A stretch of 29,859 nt of DNA from Haloferacaceae archaeon PL-Br10_E2g29 (GCA_001563965.1 LKMS01000001.1:1-29859); one strand, 5' to 3'. Shown: positions 3,954-25,913, numbered from the stretch's first letter. Notes: a model not told the origin generated them from the sequence alone. Translations and numbers: made by a program.

Positions 3954-4477
3954 CTGTTCGAACCTTCCTCGCCGACCTGCTGACGCAGCTCGTCTTGTTC
4001 GCCGAACTGTTCGGCCTGCCGGTGTTGTTCGTCGTGTTCGTTCTCAAGGGAATGTTGATCGGCAAGCCGCTGTCGACGACGCTGTTTCTGCCGGGGTACA
4101 TTATCGCCACCCGCGCAGACATGACCGAGACGGTTCTCACCGTCCTCGTCGTCACGCTCGGCTACATTATCGGCCAACTCGTCATCTATGTCGGTGTCGA
4201 CCGCTACGGACTGCGGTTCATCGAGCGGCTGCCGTACGTGAACTTCGATCCGACGAGCGAGCGAACCCAACAGGTACTCCGATGGTTCGACACGTATGGC
4301 GGCCTCGCCGTGTTCGTTTCGAACTGTGTGCCGTTTTTCCGGGGACTCCTGACGATTCCCGCGGCAACGAGCGACTATCCGCTGGGCTGGTATGTCGGCT
4401 ACATGGGATCGTCGAGTCTGCTGTATTTTTCTGCCTACGTGGCGCTCGCGCTCGCGGGCGTCCAGCTCGTGCTGTAA
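3950..4477 (+). CDS. DedA/VTT (SNARE-associated) family membrane protein
   Basis: 175 aa, hydrophobic. LGYIIGQLVIY..GLRF, RWFDTYGGLAVFVSNCVPFFRGLLTIPAA follows the DedA pattern WF.(K/R)YG...VF..RF.P..R...S.PAG. Confidence 0.8.
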   Translation: MTVRTFLADLLTQLVLFAELFGLPVLFVVFVLKGMLIGKPLSTTLFLPGYIIATRADMTETVLTVLVVTLGYIIGQLVIYVGVDRYGLRFIERLPYVNFDPTSERTQQVLRWFDTYGGLAVFVSNCVPFFRGLLTIPAATSDYPLGWYVGYMGSSSLLYFSAYVALALAGVQLVL

Positions 4478-15530: not shown

Positions 15531-18359
15531 TTACGATTCGTCCGCAGCCGACCCAGCATCGCCACCCGAGTCGGCCGAAGCGAGCCGTTGTTGCCACTCG
15601 TGGACTGTTGACAGCAGCTCGACCGGCGGCGTCTCGCCGAGATCGACCGACTGCACGGCGGTGAGCACGGCTTGTGCGTCGGGATCGAGAGCGGGAGCCG
15701 ACCGGGAGTCGGTCGTCGGTGTCGACGGTGCTGTCGCGGGCGACTCGTCCGTCGATGTCGATGATTCCGATGACGACGACTCGGCTGTGGTAAACGAGCC
15801 GGTTCCGAGGTCGAAGACGGCCTGTGTCGGCTCGCTTCCGCCGCTGTTTTTCGCCTCAATCGCCTTCTCGTCGCGGAGTTTGTCGAGGACGGTCCGCGCG
15901 CGGTCGACGACGGGCGACGGAACGCCCGCGAGGTCGGCGACGTGGATGCCGTACGAGCGGTCGGTCGGCCCCTCCTCGACGGTTCGGAGAAACGTAATAT
16001 CCTCGTCCCCAGCTGAATCCTCGCCGGCGACCGCAACGTGGACGTTGCCAACGCGGTCGAGATGGTCGGCGAGCGCCGTTAGCTCGTGGTAGTGGGTCGC
16101 AAACAGGCAGTGACAGCCGATTTCGTTGTGAATGTACTCGGTGGCCGCCCACGCGATCGAGATGCCGTCGTAGGTCGCCGTGCCGCGGCCAACTTCGTCG
16201 AGAATCACGAGTGAGTCGTCGGTCGCCGAGTGTAGAATGTTCGACAGTTCCTGCATCTCGACCATGAACGTCGAGCGACCCTGGGCCAACTCGTCGAGTG
16301 CGCCGACACGCGTATAAATCCCGTCGACGACACCGACGGTGGCCGAGCGCGCGGGGACGAAACAGCCGATTTGGGCGAGCAGCGTAATCAACGCCGCCTG
16401 CCGCATGTACGTCGATTTCCCGCTCATGTTTGGACCCGTGACGAGCAGGAATCCCCGCTCGCGGTCGAGAAAGAGATCGTTCGGAACGAACTCGGTTGTT
16501 TGCTCGACAACGGGGTGGCGACCCGCCTCGATATCGAGCGTGCCCGGTGCGACCAGTTCGGGGCGACACCAGTTCGCGCCGGCGGTGTGGGTTGCTAGCG
16601 CACAGAAAACGTCGATTTCGGCGAGCGCGCGCCCCACGTCTTGGAGCAGCGCCGACTGTTCGGCGACCGTCTCGCGAAGCGCCTCGAACAGCTCGTATTC
16701 GAGGTCACCGCGTTGTTCTTCGAGCCGGAGAATCTCGCGTTCGCGTTCGGCCAGCGCGTCGGTGACGAACCGTTTGGAGTTTTTGAGCGTTTTGACGTGT
16801 GAAAAAAAGTCGGGAACGGCGTCGGCCTGCGAGCGGCCGACCTGGATGTAGTAGCCGTCGGTTTTGTTGCGCGACACGGAAACGTGGCTCAGGCCGTACT
16901 CGGCTTTGATCCGGTCGGCCAGCCCGTCGATCCAGTTCAGCGCCGTCTCGTGTTGGTCGATCAGTTCATCGAGCGTGTCGTCGTAGCCGCGCGAAAACAG
17001 TCCGCCCTGCGTGACCGTTTTCGGCGGATCGGACGCAAGCGCGGAGTCAAGCGTCTCGCACAGCGAGGCCGCGGCCACGCGGTCGACGCCGTCGATAACG
17101 CCAGCCAACGGCGAGCCCGCGAGTTCGCCCGCCTCGATTTCGTCGGCGACCGCCGGGAGCACCGCCAGCGTGTCACGAACCGAGAGCAGTTCGCGAGCGC
17201 CCGCGCTGCCGCTGGCGACCCGGCTGGCGAGCCGTTCGAGGTCGGCCGCGCCGTCGAGCGTTTCGCGGAGCCGTTGGCGGGCGAGCGCGGCCGACGCGAG
17301 CGCCTCGATGCAGTCGAGTCGGCGGTCGAGTTCGGCGCGGTCGCGACGCGGCCGGGTTACCCACTCGCGGAGGAGTCGACCGCCCGGACTGGTTTCGGTG
17401 TGATCAAGCACCGAAACCAGCGAGCCCTCGCGGTCGCCGTGCATCGTCTCGACCAGTTCGAGGTTGCGCTGGGTCGTCGCATCGAGGGTGAGGTGGTCGT
17501 CGGCCGTGTACGGCTGGAGTCGCGTCATCGACTGGCGAACCCCAACGCCGGTGTCGTCGACGAACGCGAGAATTGCGCCCGCCGCGCGAACCGCCAGTTC
17601 GGAGTCGAGCCCGATGCTGTCAAGCGTTTCGGCGCCGAACTGCTCGCCGACCGTATGGCGGGCGCGACCGGGCGCAAACGCCTCGGTTTCGAAGCGCGCC
17701 AGCGAGGCGTCAGTGCGCTCGCGAAGCGTCGACAGGAAGTCGTCGTCGCTGCGAACGGCCGGCCCGGGCAGGATTTCGACGGGGTCGAACCGGTAGAGTT
17801 CGGCGTGTGCGGCCGCCGCGGTGGCGACCTCGCAGACGTGAAACTGGCCGGTGGTGATGTCGGCAAACGCGAGGCCGTAGGGGCCGCCCACGTCGTCGTC
17901 AGCAGCCGCGCCAGCGGCGTTGGTGCGGTCACCAGCGGCGTGGTCTGTGGGGGCGCTGGCGGTCATCGGCCGGCCCGAAAGCGGCAGTGGGCGGACGACC
18001 GCGGCGAGATACTGCGCGTCGCTGTCGCTGGTTTCGAGCAGTGTCCCGGGCGTGACCGTTCGGGTTATTTCCCGAGAAAATTCGCCGTCGTCGTCCTCGA
18101 ACTGGTCGGCGACGGCGACGGTGTAGCCGCGTTCGACGAGCGCCTTCAGATAGGGCGTGAGCTCCGACAGCGGAACGCCCGCCATCGGATACGACGAGCC
18201 GTGTGAGGATTTCGTCGACACCGTCAGCTCGAGTTCCTCGCTCACCAGCTCGGCATCATCGGCAAAAAATTCGTAGAAATCACCGCACTGCATCGCCAGC
18301 AGGTCGGCATCGGTATCGCGTTTGAGCGAGAGAAACTGCTCGACGATTCCCTGAGCCAT
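15531..18359 (-). CDS. mutS: DNA mismatch repair protein MutS (MutS1 type)
   Basis: Mismatch-binding GDFYEFF, MAGVP, TPGT, LDATTQRNLEL, GRHPVVE, Walker A TGPNMSGKSTYMRQ, GRSTFMVEM, DEVGRGT, ATHYHEL and SYGIHVA. Confidence 0.98.
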   Translation of the reverse strand: MAQGIVEQFLSLKRDTDADLLAMQCGDFYEFFADDAELVSEELELTVSTKSSHGSSYPMAGVPLSELTPYLKALVERGYTVAVADQFEDDDGEFSREITRTVTPGTLLETSDSDAQYLAAVVRPLPLSGRPMTASAPTDHAAGDRTNAAGAAADDDVGGPYGLAFADITTGQFHVCEVATAAAAHAELYRFDPVEILPGPAVRSDDDFLSTLRERTDASLARFETEAFAPGRARHTVGEQFGAETLDSIGLDSELAVRAAGAILAFVDDTGVGVRQSMTRLQPYTADDHLTLDATTQRNLELVETMHGDREGSLVSVLDHTETSPGGRLLREWVTRPRRDRAELDRRLDCIEALASAALARQRLRETLDGAADLERLASRVASGSAGARELLSVRDTLAVLPAVADEIEAGELAGSPLAGVIDGVDRVAAASLCETLDSALASDPPKTVTQGGLFSRGYDDTLDELIDQHETALNWIDGLADRIKAEYGLSHVSVSRNKTDGYYIQVGRSQADAVPDFFSHVKTLKNSKRFVTDALAEREREILRLEEQRGDLEYELFEALRETVAEQSALLQDVGRALAEIDVFCALATHTAGANWCRPELVAPGTLDIEAGRHPVVEQTTEFVPNDLFLDRERGFLLVTGPNMSGKSTYMRQAALITLLAQIGCFVPARSATVGVVDGIYTRVGALDELAQGRSTFMVEMQELSNILHSATDDSLVILDEVGRGTATYDGISIAWAATEYIHNEIGCHCLFATHYHELTALADHLDRVGNVHVAVAGEDSAGDEDITFLRTVEEGPTDRSYGIHVADLAGVPSPVVDRARTVLDKLRDEKAIEAKNSGGSEPTQAVFDLGTGSFTTAESSSSESSTSTDESPATAPSTPTTDSRSAPALDPDAQAVLTAVQSVDLGETPPVELLSTVHEWQQRLASADSGGDAGSAADES

Positions 18360-20378: not shown

Positions 20379-22187
20379 ATGACGGACTCGGAGCCATCGC
20401 GAACGGTTTCACGGCGTGCGGCACTGACAGGTGCGGCGGGTGCCCTCGTTGCGAGCGCCGGCTGTGTGCGACGGCTTCGAACCACCGTCGGCGGCGACAG
20501 TACCGGCCAACTCGTCGTCAGAATCACGATTCCCGTTGGCGACTACGATCCGTTCGCCGCCCCCATCGCGCGCCACCTCATCGACGGACTCGAAGCCGCG
20601 GGTATCGACTACCGACTAACGCCGGCTTCACAGGACGAACTGTACCGGCAAGTGCTGTTGGCCGCCGATTTCGACATCTATATCGGACGACTGCCAACTG
20701 ACCGCCAGCCCGACCCGGACGTGCTGTATCCGCTGTTACACTCGAAATTCCGTGGCGAGGTTGGCTGGCAGAACCCGTTCGGCTTTACCAACCCCGACTG
20801 TGACGAACTGCTCGACGACCAGCGTCGCGAGCGGGGAACCGACCGACAGGAAACCGTTGACTCGCTCCAATCGCTGCTGGGTCAGACCCAGCCGTTCGTC
20901 CCGTTGGTTCGACCCGAGATCATCTCAGGCGTCAGACGCGACCGGTTCGACGACTGGGAAGACGCCATGACCGAACCGCCAACCGGCCTTTTGCGACTCA
21001 ACCGGCTGGACGCCGACGACGGCCATCTCACGCTCGGAACGACTGATCCACGCGTGACCGAAAACCGAAATCCAATCTCGGCAACGTACAGTTACGACAC
21101 CTCAATCGTGAGCCTGCTGTACGACCCACTCGTGATCGAAAGCGGTGGGGAGCGCCGGAACTGGCTCGCCAGCGGCATCGAGTGGGAGTCGGCGGCGACC
21201 CCTGAACAGGAGGAAGCAGCCAACGCAACCGTCACGCTCCGCGAGGATCTCCAGTGGCACGACGGCGAGCCGTTGACCGCGGCCGACGTTGCGTTCACCT
21301 TCTCGTTTCTCGACGACACCGCCGCCGGATCAGCCGCCAGTTCGGTTCCCTCACCGAGGTTTCGCCAACAGAGCTCGCTCATCACGGCGGCAACCGCACT
21401 CGACGACAGAACCGTCCGACTCACGTTCGATGAGGCGAGCGAGGAGGTCGCCGAAGGGGCGCTCACGGCACCGATCTTTCCCGAGCACATCTGGAGTGAG
21501 CAAACCGAGATCGCATCGATTGCGGGCGTCGAACTCAGCGAGGCGGCGACCGAGGCGATGGTCTGGGACAACCCCGAACCCGTCGGCAGCGGCCCAATCC
21601 AGTTCGAGGAGGCAACCGATGGCTCGTTCGTGACGGTGTCGCGGTTCAACGACCACTTCCTCGCGCGAGCGTCGAACAACGAGGACAGCACTGACGACGC
21701 CGACGGCGACCTCGCGTTTCCGGTGTTCGAAGAGCTCACCGTTGATCTGTTGTCGTCGTCGCCGGTGCTTGTCGAGTCGCTGTCGGCCGAAGACATCGAC
21801 GCCACCATCTCACCGCTCGATCCGGCCGAGGTCGAACGGATCGAGGACGAACCGCCGCTGTCGCTGGTGACCGCGCTCTCGTATGCGAGCTATCATCTCG
21901 GCTTCAACACGCGAAGCGAACCGTTCGGCGATCCGAGCTTCCGGCGGACGATCGCCCGGCTCTGTGACAAAGCCGCCCTCGCAGCCGAGGTGTTCGGGGG
22001 GTACGGCGAACCGGTTGCCAGCCCGCTTGCGGGCACCGACTGGCTGGCCGATGAGCTGCAGTGGGACGGCACCGATCCGGTCGCACCGTTCCTCGGTGAG
22101 AACGGCGAGGTCGACGACACACGCGCGAAAGACGCGTTCCGTGACATTGGCTACCGGTACAACGCGAACGACGAACTGATTGTATAG
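20379..22187 (+). CDS. Family-5 (DppA/OppA/NikA-like) solute-binding Tat lipoprotein, orphan
   Basis: SRRAAL twin-Arg and ASAGC lipobox; LLYDPL, WHDGEPLTAADVAFTF, PVGSGP, LGFNTRSEPFGD and QNPFGFTNP. CTTATA box at 20345-20350. No permease or ATPase gene in the window. Confidence 0.88.
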   Translation: MTDSEPSRTVSRRAALTGAAGALVASAGCVRRLRTTVGGDSTGQLVVRITIPVGDYDPFAAPIARHLIDGLEAAGIDYRLTPASQDELYRQVLLAADFDIYIGRLPTDRQPDPDVLYPLLHSKFRGEVGWQNPFGFTNPDCDELLDDQRRERGTDRQETVDSLQSLLGQTQPFVPLVRPEIISGVRRDRFDDWEDAMTEPPTGLLRLNRLDADDGHLTLGTTDPRVTENRNPISATYSYDTSIVSLLYDPLVIESGGERRNWLASGIEWESAATPEQEEAANATVTLREDLQWHDGEPLTAADVAFTFSFLDDTAAGSAASSVPSPRFRQQSSLITAATALDDRTVRLTFDEASEEVAEGALTAPIFPEHIWSEQTEIASIAGVELSEAATEAMVWDNPEPVGSGPIQFEEATDGSFVTVSRFNDHFLARASNNEDSTDDADGDLAFPVFEELTVDLLSSSPVLVESLSAEDIDATISPLDPAEVERIEDEPPLSLVTALSYASYHLGFNTRSEPFGDPSFRRTIARLCDKAALAAEVFGGYGEPVASPLAGTDWLADELQWDGTDPVAPFLGENGEVDDTRAKDAFRDIGYRYNANDELIV

Positions 22188-22277
22188 GCGTCGACGCGAG
22201 TTGTACACAGACAAAAACCGCTCGGCCGCAACCCGAGCCAACACCGCTTTATTTGTCGACTGTTAGATATGGACGAT

Positions 22278-23090
22278 ATGAACAGACGAACGGTGTTGGC
22301 GACGGCGGGCGTTGTCGGCGGCGTTGGGCTGTCGGGGTGTCTCGGGTTGGTTGATGGGCTCACGACGTTCGAAGCAAGCGTTGCCGATGTCGACGAATCC
22401 GCGCTGTCGGAAACCGGGTATGACGAAACCGGCGTCGACGAGATTGTCAACGAACGGACGTTCGAGGCCGCTGGAGAGTCCGAAACCGTCGAGGTGACGA
22501 GCTATCTGGCCGAGCACGCAAAACAGATCGATATGGGGCCGATTGGCGAACAGGAGACGGCGACATTCAGCGTACTTTCCTCGCCGAAAGTCGAGGCAGT
22601 GGGGCGATCGTTCAATCCGATCGAGGAGATGAATACCGAGGAGATCGTCGAACTCATCGAGGACAACTACGACGACATCGGCGAACTCAACAGAGAGTCG
22701 GATCACGAGATCACGCTCGTCGACCAAACGGTCGACGAGTCGATCTTCAGCGCGCCCGCCTCGATCGACGGCCAGCCGTTCGATCTCGCGCTGCACGTCA
22801 CGACGGCGGCCGAACGCGGCGACGACTTCGTCCTCGCGATCGGCGCGTATCCACAGGAGGTCGAATCGCAAGAGAAACCCAACATTCGAACGCTCATCGA
22901 GGCAGTCACGCCCGCCGATGACCGCGAAGACAGTGACGAGGCTGAAGACGAAGACGACACCACGAATGGCGAGGCTGAAGACGGAGACGACGGGCTCCTG
23001 GGTGAGGACGATGCAGACGACGAGAACGACGCCGGCGATGACAACGACACCGATGAGCAGAGTGACGACGAGGGGCTGCTCGGACTGTAG
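22278..23090 (+). CDS. Tat lipoprotein (DUF6517-like) with an acidic tail
   Basis: MNRRTVL...LSGCLG (Tat motif plus lipobox), ALSETGY and VLSSPKVEAVGRSFNP. TTTATT box at 22248-22253. ATG 22269 is an alternative start. Family name is from memory. Confidence 0.78.
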   Translation: MNRRTVLATAGVVGGVGLSGCLGLVDGLTTFEASVADVDESALSETGYDETGVDEIVNERTFEAAGESETVEVTSYLAEHAKQIDMGPIGEQETATFSVLSSPKVEAVGRSFNPIEEMNTEEIVELIEDNYDDIGELNRESDHEITLVDQTVDESIFSAPASIDGQPFDLALHVTTAAERGDDFVLAIGAYPQEVESQEKPNIRTLIEAVTPADDREDSDEAEDEDDTTNGEAEDGDDGLLGEDDADDENDAGDDNDTDEQSDDEGLLGL

Positions 23091-23147
23091 CTGATTGCCT
23101 TCGTAACGCCGATACTGTTTTTTACACGAACAAAAAACTCCCATTGA

Positions 23148-24401
23148 ATGAATCGTCGCCGCGGGCTGTTGGTCGTCGCACTCGTTGTGCTCGCAGGAGC
23201 GTACCTGTTGGCCGGCGGCGTCGGCCTGAGCACCGAAGACCCGCCAGCCCAAGAGATCGACAGCGTGGATGATGCCGAACTCATCCAACCAACCGAAAAC
23301 GGCAGCTATCTGTGGCCCTACACCAGTCGATCCCGGTCGGTAGAGCACCGAACGCTCGCGATCAACCTCATTATTCACGCGCCGCCCGATGAGGCACGGA
23401 CCGCGCTGATCGAACGCAGCGATCTTGACTGGGAAGAAACCAACGAGACGATGGAGGATGCGGGCACCGACACCTACGAGATTTCGGTCGACGACGGTGT
23501 CGACTGGGACGATGCGGACGGCTCAACCCGATACTCCTACATCGACCGTTCACCACACGGTGGCGAGGGCGAGTGGGTTGATGAGAGCTACCAGTTACAC
23601 AGCGGGGCGTATCTCGGCTCGCGACACCACATCCGCGCGTACAGTTCGGAAGATGACAACTGGACGGCTATTCAGGTTCACCACGAGTACTTCGATTGGT
23701 TCCGGCTTCGTCACACCGTCACCGACATCGATAATGCGCGCGTCATCATCGAGGACGACTTCATCGAACAACCGTTCGTTACCTCGGTCAGCCGCAACTA
23801 TTACGGTCTCGACGGCGGCTGGAGCGACGGCTGGATCAGCGAGATCGAGCTCGCAACCGCGTTGTTGCTGTTGACGTTCGTCAGTCACCGAACGCGCCGA
23901 ACCACCATCACCATGGGCCGTGATCTCACACAATGGGCCAGTAAAAACCGCTACGGCTTCGTGTTGGCGGCGAGCCTCGCGGCGCTCCTCTTGGGCGTCC
24001 GGTTTGCGGGGATTGCCCTTGAGGCGACGGTGACGAGTCAATCCCCACAGATTCTCGCGGGGGTGTTGTACCCGCTGCTCGTCTTCGGGCCACCGATTCT
24101 CGTGGCGGTGTTGGCCCCGCGGCTTGACGCGTTGCCGGCGTTCGGCTTTACGCTCGCCGGCATGGGGGTGGGCTTCGTCTACGACTTCGCCGCGATCGGC
24201 CTCGGCGTTGTTCCCATCGAGTTGGTGCTCCACCGGCTCGGCCTCGTGATCGCGCTCGGTGCGTTTGCCGCCGCCATCGTCGGCTCGCACAACCGCGAAC
24301 CGGACGAGTGGGAGGTCGCCGACGCCGATCCGCCGTTGACGCTCCTCACGATCGCCGCGTGGTTCCTCGGGCTCGCGCTCCCGCTGTTCGGCTACATCTG
24401 A
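23148..24401 (+). CDS. Membrane protein: N-terminal anchor, about 200-aa extracytoplasmic domain (LssY_C-like by eye), about 6 C-terminal TM helices
   Basis: MNRRRGLLVVALVVLAG signal/anchor; soluble domain with AINL, SRHHIRAY and HTVTDIDNAR; hydrophobic C-terminal segments. Confidence 0.8.
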   Translation: MNRRRGLLVVALVVLAGAYLLAGGVGLSTEDPPAQEIDSVDDAELIQPTENGSYLWPYTSRSRSVEHRTLAINLIIHAPPDEARTALIERSDLDWEETNETMEDAGTDTYEISVDDGVDWDDADGSTRYSYIDRSPHGGEGEWVDESYQLHSGAYLGSRHHIRAYSSEDDNWTAIQVHHEYFDWFRLRHTVTDIDNARVIIEDDFIEQPFVTSVSRNYYGLDGGWSDGWISEIELATALLLLTFVSHRTRRTTITMGRDLTQWASKNRYGFVLAASLAALLLGVRFAGIALEATVTSQSPQILAGVLYPLLVFGPPILVAVLAPRLDALPAFGFTLAGMGVGFVYDFAAIGLGVVPIELVLHRLGLVIALGAFAAAIVGSHNREPDEWEVADADPPLTLLTIAAWFLGLALPLFGYI

Positions 24402-24503
24402 GCCGGAACAGCGAGCACAGGTAGCTAGCCTTTTTATATTCTTGGGACCGAACTGCTCTTACGTTACGCCGGCACCCACCGGGTACACCATCCTCACAGA
24501 ACG

Positions 24504-25454
24504 ATGCTCCTCTCGCTCCTCATCGAAATAACCCTCGTCGTCGGCGCGTGCATTCTGGTCGGCGCGGTCACGATTGTCGGCCGCACGCGACTCAGCGAGT
24601 TGGCCAGCGAGTTCCGGCCGCGGCTCCGTCAGTCGGGCCCGTATCTGATTGCGCTTGCCGTGTTGTTGGCGTTCAACTCGGTGCTCAGAGATGTCACCGA
24701 CGAGTTCTCCTGGTTTGTCGGCTGGGAGATTACCGGCGCAATCGAGGCCATCGAGGGCAACTTCATCGGCTTCGTCCAGTCGTTTCAGACGGAGTTGTTG
24801 ACGACGTACTTTTCGTACATCTACGTCCACGGCTACGTGTTTTTGCTCGTATTTCCGTTGTTCGCCTACATCGCGCTCCAGCGCCAGCAGCGGTTTCGCG
24901 AACTCGTCGTCGCCTACGGGTTGAACTACGTGCTGGGAACCGTGTTGTACGTCATGTTCATTGCCTTCGGGCCCCGAAACGTCGGCATCGGCGAGAGCCT
25001 GTTGTACACGACGTTTCCACAGTTTCAGACGCTCACCACCGAGATCAACAACCCGACAAACGTGTTCCCCTCGTTGCACACGTCGCTGTCGGTGACCGCC
25101 GGCATCTTTGCGTACAAAACCCGCGAGGCGTATCCCGCGTGGCTCCCCATCGCCGCCGTGCTCGCGGGGAGCGTGGTTATCTCGACGATGTATCTCGGCA
25201 TTCACTGGGCAATCGATGTCGTCGCCGGCATTGTGCTCGCGGCGGGGTGTGTCTACGGCGCCGAGCGCTTCGTCGCCGCACAGGATCGCTGGGTGGCGGC
25301 GGCTCCGGAAGGAAAATCGGCACTCCTTGAAGTACCCCATCTCGGCCCGCGAGTCGAGATGCTCTCGGCGGCCGTCGGGGCGACGCGATGGACCGCCCGG
25401 TTCGAACGTGAGAGCGACGCGGACAGCGACTCGAACGAGGTCAGTAGCGACTGA
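24504..25454 (+). CDS. PAP2-superfamily membrane phosphatase/phosphotransferase (Aur1/IPC-synthase-like)
   Basis: Multiple TM helices; FGPRN, FPSLHTS (C2) and STMYLGIHWAIDVVAG (C3). There is no K-x6-RP C1 motif. Confidence 0.88.
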   Translation: MLLSLLIEITLVVGACILVGAVTIVGRTRLSELASEFRPRLRQSGPYLIALAVLLAFNSVLRDVTDEFSWFVGWEITGAIEAIEGNFIGFVQSFQTELLTTYFSYIYVHGYVFLLVFPLFAYIALQRQQRFRELVVAYGLNYVLGTVLYVMFIAFGPRNVGIGESLLYTTFPQFQTLTTEINNPTNVFPSLHTSLSVTAGIFAYKTREAYPAWLPIAAVLAGSVVISTMYLGIHWAIDVVAGIVLAAGCVYGAERFVAAQDRWVAAAPEGKSALLEVPHLGPRVEMLSAAVGATRWTARFERESDADSDSNEVSSD

Positions 25455-25484
25455 GCGGACGGGTCAAAAAACGACGTCTCGCAA

Positions 25485-25913
25485 TCAGTGAAGTTCGGCG
25501 AGCGAGCCGAAGTCGTCGACGGGCATCACGGAGTAATCGACGGTGAGCGTGTCTTGGGTCGCCCGAATCTTGCCGACGAACGTCGAGATCTCGGTGAGTT
25601 CGCCCTCAAGAACAAACAGTTCCATGCAGTAGTGGTTGCCGACGTGGCTGTGGAAGTTCGAGGCGACAAGCGACTCGTGTTCGTGCCGAAGGTGCATCAT
25701 TCGCTCTTCGACACTCGTCGTCTCGTAGTTGAACAACACCGTGACGATGGCGATGAGGTCGCGGTCTTCGAGTCGTTTGTCCTCGAACTCGCCGAGCAGG
25801 TTGCGCGAGGCCTCGCGGACGACTTCGCTGCGCCCCGTGTAGCCGTGTTCCTCGGCGAACGCGTCGATTCGGTTGAGCAGTTCTTCGGGCATGGAGACGC
25901 TGACAACGGTCAT
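25485..25913 (-). CDS. nikR: Nickel-responsive ribbon-helix-helix regulator NikR
   Basis: [13 protein letters not shown]...[15 protein letters not shown] domain; metal ligands H-x10-HSH-x5-C have the E. coli H76/H87/H89/C95 spacing. Confidence 0.9.

Follow-up and report, generated by a model that had tools for sequence, protein, structure and literature searches.

A haloarchaeal gene module joining a PAP2 enzyme, a putatively permuted substrate-binding lipoprotein and a membrane protein with a predicted LssY_C-like fold

Introduction

Substrate-binding proteins (SBPs) may dock on partners other than transporters, including chemoreceptors and sensor kinases such as LuxP-LuxQ, and orphan SBPs also exist. 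Within the PAP2 superfamily, some enzymes hydrolyse soluble substrates, as do the class A acid phosphatases and glucose-6-phosphatase. In bacteria PAP2 domains are also found in LssY-type fusions, where an LssY_C domain is joined either to PAP2 alone or to PAP2 and a DedA (VTT) domain; DedA-PAP2 fusions have been taken as polyprenyl-pyrophosphate dephosphorylation coupled to return of the carrier (PMC10127716, PMC9876793). Here we describe an association of comparable parts in Halobacteria, present at positions 20379-25454 of a 29,859-nucleotide stretch of DNA from Haloferacaceae archaeon PL-Br10_E2g29 (GCA_001563965.1, LKMS01000001.1:1-29859), referred to as the window. The genes concerned encode a lipoprotein of the family-5 SBP (SBP5) fold with a twin-arginine translocation (Tat) signal, an integral membrane enzyme of the PAP2_3 type, and a membrane protein of 417 amino acids, here called MP417; a DUF6517 lipoprotein is encoded among them. 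The source genome was assembled from a metagenome and is 57% complete in 134 contigs, so that absence of a gene from the genome as a whole is not claimable. Full-text literature searches returned no paper on this module, on LssY or LssY_C (PF14067), on DUF6517, or on PAP2 in connection with haloarchaeal SBPs, and a paper on archaeal lipoprotein biogenesis (AliA/AliB) does not mention PAP2.

Conservation of the Module across Halobacteria

Three of the four proteins form a recurrent set. Each protein was searched in 401 Halobacteria genomes, of which 256 have a match to MP417, 264 to the SBP and 263 to PAP2. The tallies for these three are nearly equal family by family and genus by genus: 101, 102 and 102 of 154 genomes in family f1 (in the order MP417, SBP, PAP2), 91 each of 98 in f5, 4, 3 and 3 of 22 in f3, and 7 each of 7 in f9. 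In genera that are only partly positive (g3, 13/22; g4, 4/12; g8, 6/8; g31, 2/12) identical genomes are positive for SBP and MP417. The three-gene module is common to about two-thirds of the sampled genomes.

Gene order is conserved along with gene content. Of 29 loci anchored on the SBP in other genomes, 28 have PAP2 as the next same-strand gene after the SBP gene, and the inferred gap is -4 to +11 nt in 23 of those 28, so that the SBP stop and the PAP2 start overlap or nearly abut. This coupling is kept across at least nine families. Tandem SBP-PAP2-SBP-PAP2 arrays (L028:1844-7184, L070:2-4130) show that the two genes are duplicated together, and in family f5 nine genomes carry two SBP copies about 1 kb apart. 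A fusion of the two genes, hinted at by long open frames, was considered and rejected, the genes lying in different frames and each having its own stop. MP417 is found immediately upstream of the SBP gene in 11 of the 29 SBP-anchored loci, and of 19 regions of 20 kb anchored on MP417, 11 have an SBP-PAP2 pair no farther than 10 kb from it. The conserved unit in Halobacteria is usually MP417, then SBP, then PAP2, with the last two translationally coupled.

Transporter genes are not part of this arrangement. In all five genomes checked no permease of the BPD_transp_1 family is encoded inside or directly beside the module, each genome having 17-55 matches to that family, and there is none on the whole contig that carries the window. 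ATP-binding cassette (ABC) permeases found 5 kb from the module in one genome (G146) were set aside: three opposite-strand genes lie between them and the module, and they are part of another, canonical SBP operon. Clustering of all open reading frames (ORFs) from 23 regions likewise gave no further recurrent partner: leaving aside an ORF that shadows MP417 on the antisense strand, the recurrent genes were limited to mutS and the genes for a DsbA-like and a NikR-like protein, each seen in a few related genomes. DedA is not a recurrent neighbour in the same clustering, and pst or pho genes do not recur in module neighbourhoods. Such a conserved context suggests that the partner of the SBP is an enzyme in the membrane and not a transporter.

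Two further observations concern the surroundings of the module in other genomes. Six regions, drawn from three families, have a gene for a DsbA-like thioredoxin no more than a few kb away from MP417 (for example L022:8056-8685 and L023:16312-17052). In two of the 19 MP417-anchored regions, from two genera (L035:6439-9398 in G352 and L038:6364-9401 in G176), an arylsulfotransferase-like gene and a gene for a PMT_2-type glycosyltransferase of the C fold (GT-C) lie between MP417 and SBP-PAP2, overlapping each other on the opposite strand; this insertion may be a weak hint at polyprenyl-linked or sulfated glycans.

The Substrate-Binding Lipoprotein

The SBP matches the Pfam model SBP_bac_5 at 142.9 bits (cut-off 32.4; E 1.9e-41), with the match split in two stretches. 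It carries a twin-arginine motif and a lipobox cysteine, and R12, R13 and C29 are invariant in 28 orthologues. NCBIfam models gave only far-below-threshold matches to the window proteins, namely to Opp, Nik and PgpB models. In databases the protein is named 'ABC transporter substrate-binding protein'.

The order of its parts does not follow the canonical SBP5 domain order. The N-terminal 120-180 residues resemble the canonical C-terminal region (about 430-555), and residues 213-600 match the canonical N-terminal region (16-410). When compared with PDB chains by phmmer, residues 213-431 aligned with residues 16-204 of canonical family-5 proteins and residues 125-176 with residues 437-490 of 4pft; the N-terminal 180 residues alone matched 430-495 of 5u4o (E 0.009). 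A canonical Tat-lipoprotein SBP5 from G146 gave the same picture against the family profile, with profile positions 255-590 aligned to target residues 100-408 (1.9e-14) and positions 140-175 to residues 519-555 (0.037). The N-terminal alignments are weak (E 0.009-0.04), yet mutually consistent over three canonical references, and together these alignments support a circular permutation of the protein. An AlphaFold2 (AF2) model (predicted local distance difference test, pLDDT, 83.5) matches cluster-C SBPs including AppA, NikZ, DppA, AccA and others, at template modelling (TM) scores of 0.4-0.5 and over about 400 columns each; matches are expected to be partial in this way because a sequential aligner meets a permuted protein. 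Since the homologues in all 264 genomes match over their full length, the permutation would be a trait of the family.

The PAP2 Enzyme

PAP2 matches two Pfam models, PAP2_3 at 68 bits (cut-off 27; 1.2e-18) and PAP2 at 39.2 bits (cut-off 27.2; 6.8e-10), and is named 'phosphatase PAP2 family protein' in databases. The C2 (PSLH; PSxH) and C3 (Hx3D) motifs are kept, and H192, H234 and D238, which align with the motifs of PgpB, are invariant in 26-29 orthologues. The family profile matches PgpB (6.6e-6), YodM (1.9e-5), LpxE (8.9e-4) and AUR1 (2.2e-3), its E-values to solved enzymes being weak throughout (6.6e-6 to 2.7e-3). Judged by its sequence, the enzyme is probably active, by hydrolysis or by phospho-group transfer. 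The same genome encodes a second PAP2_3 paralogue, 45% identical, on contig C116 (9291-10076; L079:1441-2316, minus strand), which follows directly on the gene for GTP cyclohydrolase III and is without an adjoining SBP.

The Membrane Protein MP417

MP417 has no Pfam match (E <= 0.1) and no NCBIfam match, and its homologues are all annotated 'hypothetical' and likewise lack a Pfam domain. The AF2 model (pLDDT 73.7) begins with a helix, continues as an ectodomain of mixed beta structure (about 40-236) and ends in five long helices (about 253-413). A structure search of the Atlas with residues 36-236 returned six LssY_C-bearing clusters, at TM 0.60-0.61 over 145-151 residues; the matched clusters include LssY_C alone, LssY_C with PAP2, and VTT (DedA) with PAP2 and LssY_C. 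The AF2 ectodomain itself has a TM, normalized by target, of 0.52 to an LssY_C cluster and of 0.63 to an unnamed bacterial cluster, with root-mean-square deviations of 3.0-4.3 A, both sides of the comparison being predicted structures. An AFDB entry named TVP38, of the DedA family, also aligns to the ectodomain.

At the level of sequence this likeness is not seen. The LssY_C model (PF14067) left the window locus unmatched at E <= 10 in a six-frame search of the genome, matched none of 40 MP417 homologues at E <= 1, and had matches in none of 201 genomes of the phylum. A profile built from the ectodomain alignment gave 209 matches among 1.84 billion representatives; the best 150 of these look like MP417 family members by their length and by matching over the whole ectodomain, and include no named bacterial LssY_C protein. 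The ectodomain is, in predicted structure, an LssY_C-like fold, which is not the same as membership of the LssY_C family. Against the PDB the MP417 model had no Foldseek match at E <= 0.001, and the VIA wide search gave only helical-bundle matches with Z < 8 to the membrane part, rated non-specific. The membrane bundle had no DedA match in structure searches.

Conserved residues fall in both parts of the protein. In the ectodomain R159, H161, R163, H178, E180, D183, R188 and H189 are invariant, and these may form a putative binding or catalytic site; the invariant R285, E292, D346, H362 and R363 of the membrane part are possible charged transport residues.

A sequence-only reading of the window preceded this analysis, and several of its statements concern protein identity. 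Its permuted SBP is borne out by the three canonical references, with the weakness of the N-terminal alignments already given. Its LssY_C-like membrane protein holds for the fold (TM about 0.6), with the LssY_C sequence model unmatched. The structure searches that it had proposed placed the SBP model among cluster-C SBPs and the MP417 ectodomain among LssY_C clusters, and were empty for MP417 with Foldseek against the PDB. Its description of a 'split LssY-like system' is a fair analogy, given the fold and the bacterial LssY_C-PAP2-DedA fusions, and lacks a DedA counterpart in the module.

The Derived Arrangement of the Window

Compared with the conserved unit, the window holds a derived arrangement. 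The features at the locus are as follows.

20379-22187, plus strand: SBP gene (the 'SBP1' paralogue), 602 amino acids; permuted SBP5-like Tat lipoprotein, as aligned, and the sole SBP copy remaining at the locus.
22269-23090, plus strand: gene for a Tat lipoprotein of the DUF6517 family, its C-terminal tail acidic; a lineage-specific insertion.
23148-24401, plus strand: MP417 gene, 417 amino acids; modelled as an anchor helix, an LssY_C-like ectodomain and a five-helix membrane bundle.
24402-24503, no strand: spacer of 102 nt and deletion site of SBP2; the closest relatives hold a 2.2-kb SBP2 here, overlapping the PAP2 start; a TATA-like, T-rich stretch occupies 24430-24442.
24504-25454, plus strand: PAP2 gene, 316 amino acids; PAP2_3-type integral membrane phosphatase or phosphotransferase.

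In the closest relatives (L072-L074; MP417 70% identical) the order is SBP1-DUF6517-MP417-SBP2-PAP2, with SBP2 overlapping the PAP2 start, and a somewhat more distant lineage (66% identical) has plain MP417-SBP-PAP2. The window is collinear with L072 save for the missing 2.2-kb SBP2, the break falling exactly at 24402-24503. The remaining SBP, which is separated from PAP2 by two genes, has 58% identity to SBP1 of L072 and 43-47% to PAP2-coupled SBPs, and on these identities is the SBP1 orthologue. The junction of MP417 and PAP2 is bridged by contigs of two separate metagenome runs (X1 record 5, 23297-25667; X10 record 14, 24269-24612) and tiled by two contigs of a third (X6 records 27 and 28, overlapping at 24412-24441); with support from three runs, the SBP2 deletion is therefore real and not an assembly artefact. 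The lineage gained an SBP paralogue and DUF6517 upstream, and this organism then lost the PAP2-coupled SBP.

The DUF6517 protein is a clear member of its family, at 201.4 bits (cut-off 23.9; 1.6e-59) over profile positions 2-185 of 187, and begins with a twin-arginine motif and a lipobox cysteine. A position between SBP and MP417 is peculiar to the window and L072-L074. None was found in 19 other 20-kb module neighbourhoods. In five relatives the closest homologues are encoded elsewhere, either on a different contig or at distances from the module of 89 kb up to about 1.9 Mb. On these grounds DUF6517 was rejected as a general member of the module.

The sequence-only reading had taken the four genes for one cell-envelope module. 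Four consecutive, co-oriented genes are indeed present, as ORF calls and translations confirm, and all four products are exported or membrane proteins by their Tat signals and lipoboxes (SBP, DUF6517), modelled helices (MP417) or Pfam match (PAP2). Spacers had been put at about 90, 57 and 102 bp; the latter two stand and the first is 81 nt. The DUF6517-like assignment agrees with the Pfam score, and the statement that no ABC permease is present agrees with the lack of BPD_transp_1 on the contig. As for the module itself, SBP, MP417 and PAP2 are conserved, extracytoplasmic and transporter-less, and DUF6517 does not belong to it outside this lineage; the proposed survey of neighbourhoods gave the same division, with three proteins co-occurring and DUF6517 unlinked. 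The conserved form is MP417-SBP-PAP2 and not the order of four genes, the window having kept SBP1 and lost the PAP2-coupled SBP. A DedA gene 16 kb away had been judged coincidental, and so it appears: the match at 4091-4435 (plus strand) is sub-threshold (30.7 bits against a Pfam cut-off of 33.9) and has three further DedA-like counterparts at scattered places in the partial assembly, none of the four being near the module.

Flanking genes on the opposite strand, also as first read, are a ThiD-type kinase gene upstream and genes for a NikR-like regulator, ThiF and L15e downstream. The NikR-like regulator (RHH_1 and NikR_C domains; 25485-25913, minus strand) is convergent with PAP2. It is 87-91% identical at the protein level across genera and keeps its position in G146, G079 and L072-L077, not in more distant genomes. 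As a regulator of the NikA-like SBP it was considered and rejected, given linkage limited to the closest relatives and the convergent orientation. Farther upstream, mutS lies at 15531-18359 (minus strand); seven regions, L025, L029, L032 and L036 among them and two of the seven from another family, have mutS a few kb or less from the module, and this proximity is probably old synteny.

Each spacer between the four genes contains a T-rich, TATA-like element and oligo-T runs (22230-22268, 23110-23147 and 24425-24445). The TATA-like stretches sit 20-65 nt ahead of the next start codon and the T-runs could be archaeal terminators; each of the four genes may own a promoter. Contig depth in run X11 is highest over MP417 (about 26), with a contig ending at 24421, just before the T-run, and no X11 contig covers the first 650 nt of PAP2 (24491-25141). 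This run is labelled metatranscriptomic but flagged 'probably DNA', and its coverage was not used as evidence of expression. At position 22633 the window has A, and G is found in contigs of all four runs (in X10, in one of two contigs); the difference may be an assembly consensus error or a fixed variant.

Proposed Function and Alternatives

We propose that MP417, the apparently permuted SBP5-fold Tat lipoprotein and the PAP2_3 enzyme form a module in which the SBP serves PAP2 on a lipid-linked phosphate, a reading to which we would give an even chance. The SBP-fold lipoprotein, no longer feeding a transporter, would capture a ligand and present it to PAP2, or would regulate PAP2, whose His-His-Asp site is expected to face the outer membrane surface. 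MP417 would act with both, much as LssY_C may do in the bacterial fusions with PAP2 and DedA. The likely substrate would be an outer-leaflet lipid-linked (pyro)phosphate, either a polyprenyl or dolichyl carrier or a head-group of the archaetidyl-glycerophosphate type, and the chemistry could be either hydrolysis or phospho-group transfer. That the enzyme may act on archaeol or dolichol lipids was proposed in the sequence-only reading.

Several points weigh against this proposal. Prediction of a complex of SBP (residues 30-602) with PAP2 (1-265) scored 0.22 against a mark of 0.32, a score under the mark counting neither for nor against. PAP2 lacks the C1 lysine (KxxxxxxRP), having an invariant GPRN instead, and has Thr for the C3 arginine in all 26 orthologues, which puts a plain phosphatase reaction in question. 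The LssY_C sequence model leaves MP417 unmatched, and homology of MP417 to LssY_C is therefore carried by predicted folds. Many genomes (e.g., G273, G210, G070, G320) have MP417 unlinked from SBP-PAP2, and the separate TATA-like element and T-runs of each spacer make co-transcription in the window uncertain. The co-occurrence counts come from related, non-independent genomes and overstate the number of independent events; the module was unfound in about one-third of the sampled genomes and is therefore not a core housekeeping function.

A more specific version makes the SBP a dedicated outer-face subunit of PAP2, which would open a new class of partner for SBPs, and MP417 a third, lipid-handling component in the place of DedA, the whole being an archaeal machine that recycles or remodels phospholipid head-groups or the (pyro)phosphates of dolichol or polyprenol; in this full form the idea is tentative and rather unlikely. 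The ligand might instead be soluble. The SBP would then hand an organophosphate, such as a sugar phosphate, phosphodiester or phosphopeptide, to PAP2 acting as an ecto-phosphatase, and the phosphate released would be taken up by a separate Pst system. PAP2 enzymes with soluble substrates exist, as noted above, the neighbours of the SBP model include AccA with agrocinopine and sugar 2-phosphates, and a patchy spread over about two-thirds of genomes would suit an accessory nutritional trait. AccA, however, matches no better than binders of peptides, nickel, sialic acid or oligosaccharides, there are no recurring pst or pho genes in the neighbourhoods, and the bacterial LssY_C-PAP2-DedA fusions favour lipid carriers over soluble phosphates (PMC10127716); phosphate scavenging of this kind is unlikely. 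The altered active site bears on another possibility, that PAP2_3 takes the phospho-head-group of a membrane lipid and places it on an acceptor bound to the SBP, by chemistry of the Aur1 or sphingomyelin-synthase type, to yield a modified surface glycan, lipid or protein. Loss of the C1 Lys and the change of C3 Arg to Thr in 26/26 orthologues, with His, His and Asp retained, would agree with this, as would the best Pfam match (PAP2_3), the presence of AUR1 among the profile matches, and the PMT_2-type GT-C and arylsulfotransferase-like genes between MP417 and SBP-PAP2 in two genera. Those genes are nevertheless present in 2/19 regions only and on the opposite strand, and the profile matches to PgpB and YodM are stronger than that to AUR1, so that a phosphotransferase is quite doubtful.

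The two remaining explanations deny the pairing itself. The SBP could be an ordinary orphan that serves a distant importer of the Dpp/Opp type, its adjacency to PAP2 and MP417 reflecting shared regulation or inherited synteny and no joint function. Its Pfam family and database names are those of an ABC transporter SBP, orphan SBPs are known, the genomes hold 17-55 BPD_transp_1 matches from which a partner might come, and the complex prediction (0.22) gives the pairing no support. Against this stand the coupling to PAP2 in at least nine families, the tandem duplication of the pair as a unit, the near-identical phyletic patterns of SBP and PAP2, the permuted topology kept full-length in all homologues, and the lack of a permease inside or directly beside the module in 5/5 genomes; we regard this explanation as improbable. 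That four unrelated neighbours merely share an orientation by chance is scarcely credible: DUF6517 is unlinked to the other three elsewhere and each spacer has its promoter-like element, but hundreds of genomes show linkage or co-occurrence of the other three genes, for which chance is refuted.

Comparison with Known Systems

The module SBP shares its fold and Pfam family with the cluster C (family 5) SBPs DppA, OppA, NikA, AppA and AccA, and has a Tat signal and lipobox as do other haloarchaeal SBPs. It differs from cluster C SBPs in its permuted topology, in the lack of adjoining permease or ATPase genes, and in having PAP2 as its downstream gene, often overlapping. Hundreds of haloarchaeal genomes label as part of a transporter a protein whose conserved partner is PAP2. 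Docking of the LuxP-LuxQ type offers an analogy, in that an SBP would have taken up a partner in the membrane that is no ABC, tripartite ATP-independent periplasmic (TRAP) or tripartite tricarboxylate (TTT) transporter; in the haloarchaeal module, unlike in that case, this partner would be an enzyme. Should the pairing prove functional, an enzyme joins the short list of membrane partners served by SBPs, and the window variant, with one SBP lost and its paralogue kept, provides a natural test of whether such paralogues are interchangeable.

PAP2 of the module shares with PgpB, YodM, BcrC, LpxE and AUR1 the C2 and C3 motifs, the catalytic His/His/Asp and a multi-pass membrane nature, and differs from them in having GPRN in place of the C1 KxxxxxxRP and Thr in place of the C3 Arg. 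To our knowledge none of these enzymes needs an SBP-fold partner. The module provides a handle on the processing of lipid-linked phosphates at the archaeal outer face, including dolichyl carriers and phosphatidylglycerophosphate (PGP)-type head-groups, as well as a genetic handle on the role of the widespread LssY_C domain.

The bacterial LssY-type fusions (DedA/VTT with PAP2 and LssY_C, or PAP2 with LssY_C) resemble the module in combining an outward PAP2 with an ectodomain of LssY_C fold. The bacterial parts are united in one polypeptide, whereas those of the haloarchaeal module are encoded by separate, linked genes. The LssY_C-like domain of MP417, unlike bacterial LssY_C, fails the Pfam model and is joined to its own five-helix bundle of unassigned fold, and the module is without DedA/VTT and includes the SBP-fold lipoprotein as an extra, tightly coupled partner. 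The haloarchaeal module represents the PAP2/LssY_C association in a split archaeal form that lacks DedA, in which the permuted SBP is the new, tightly coupled partner.

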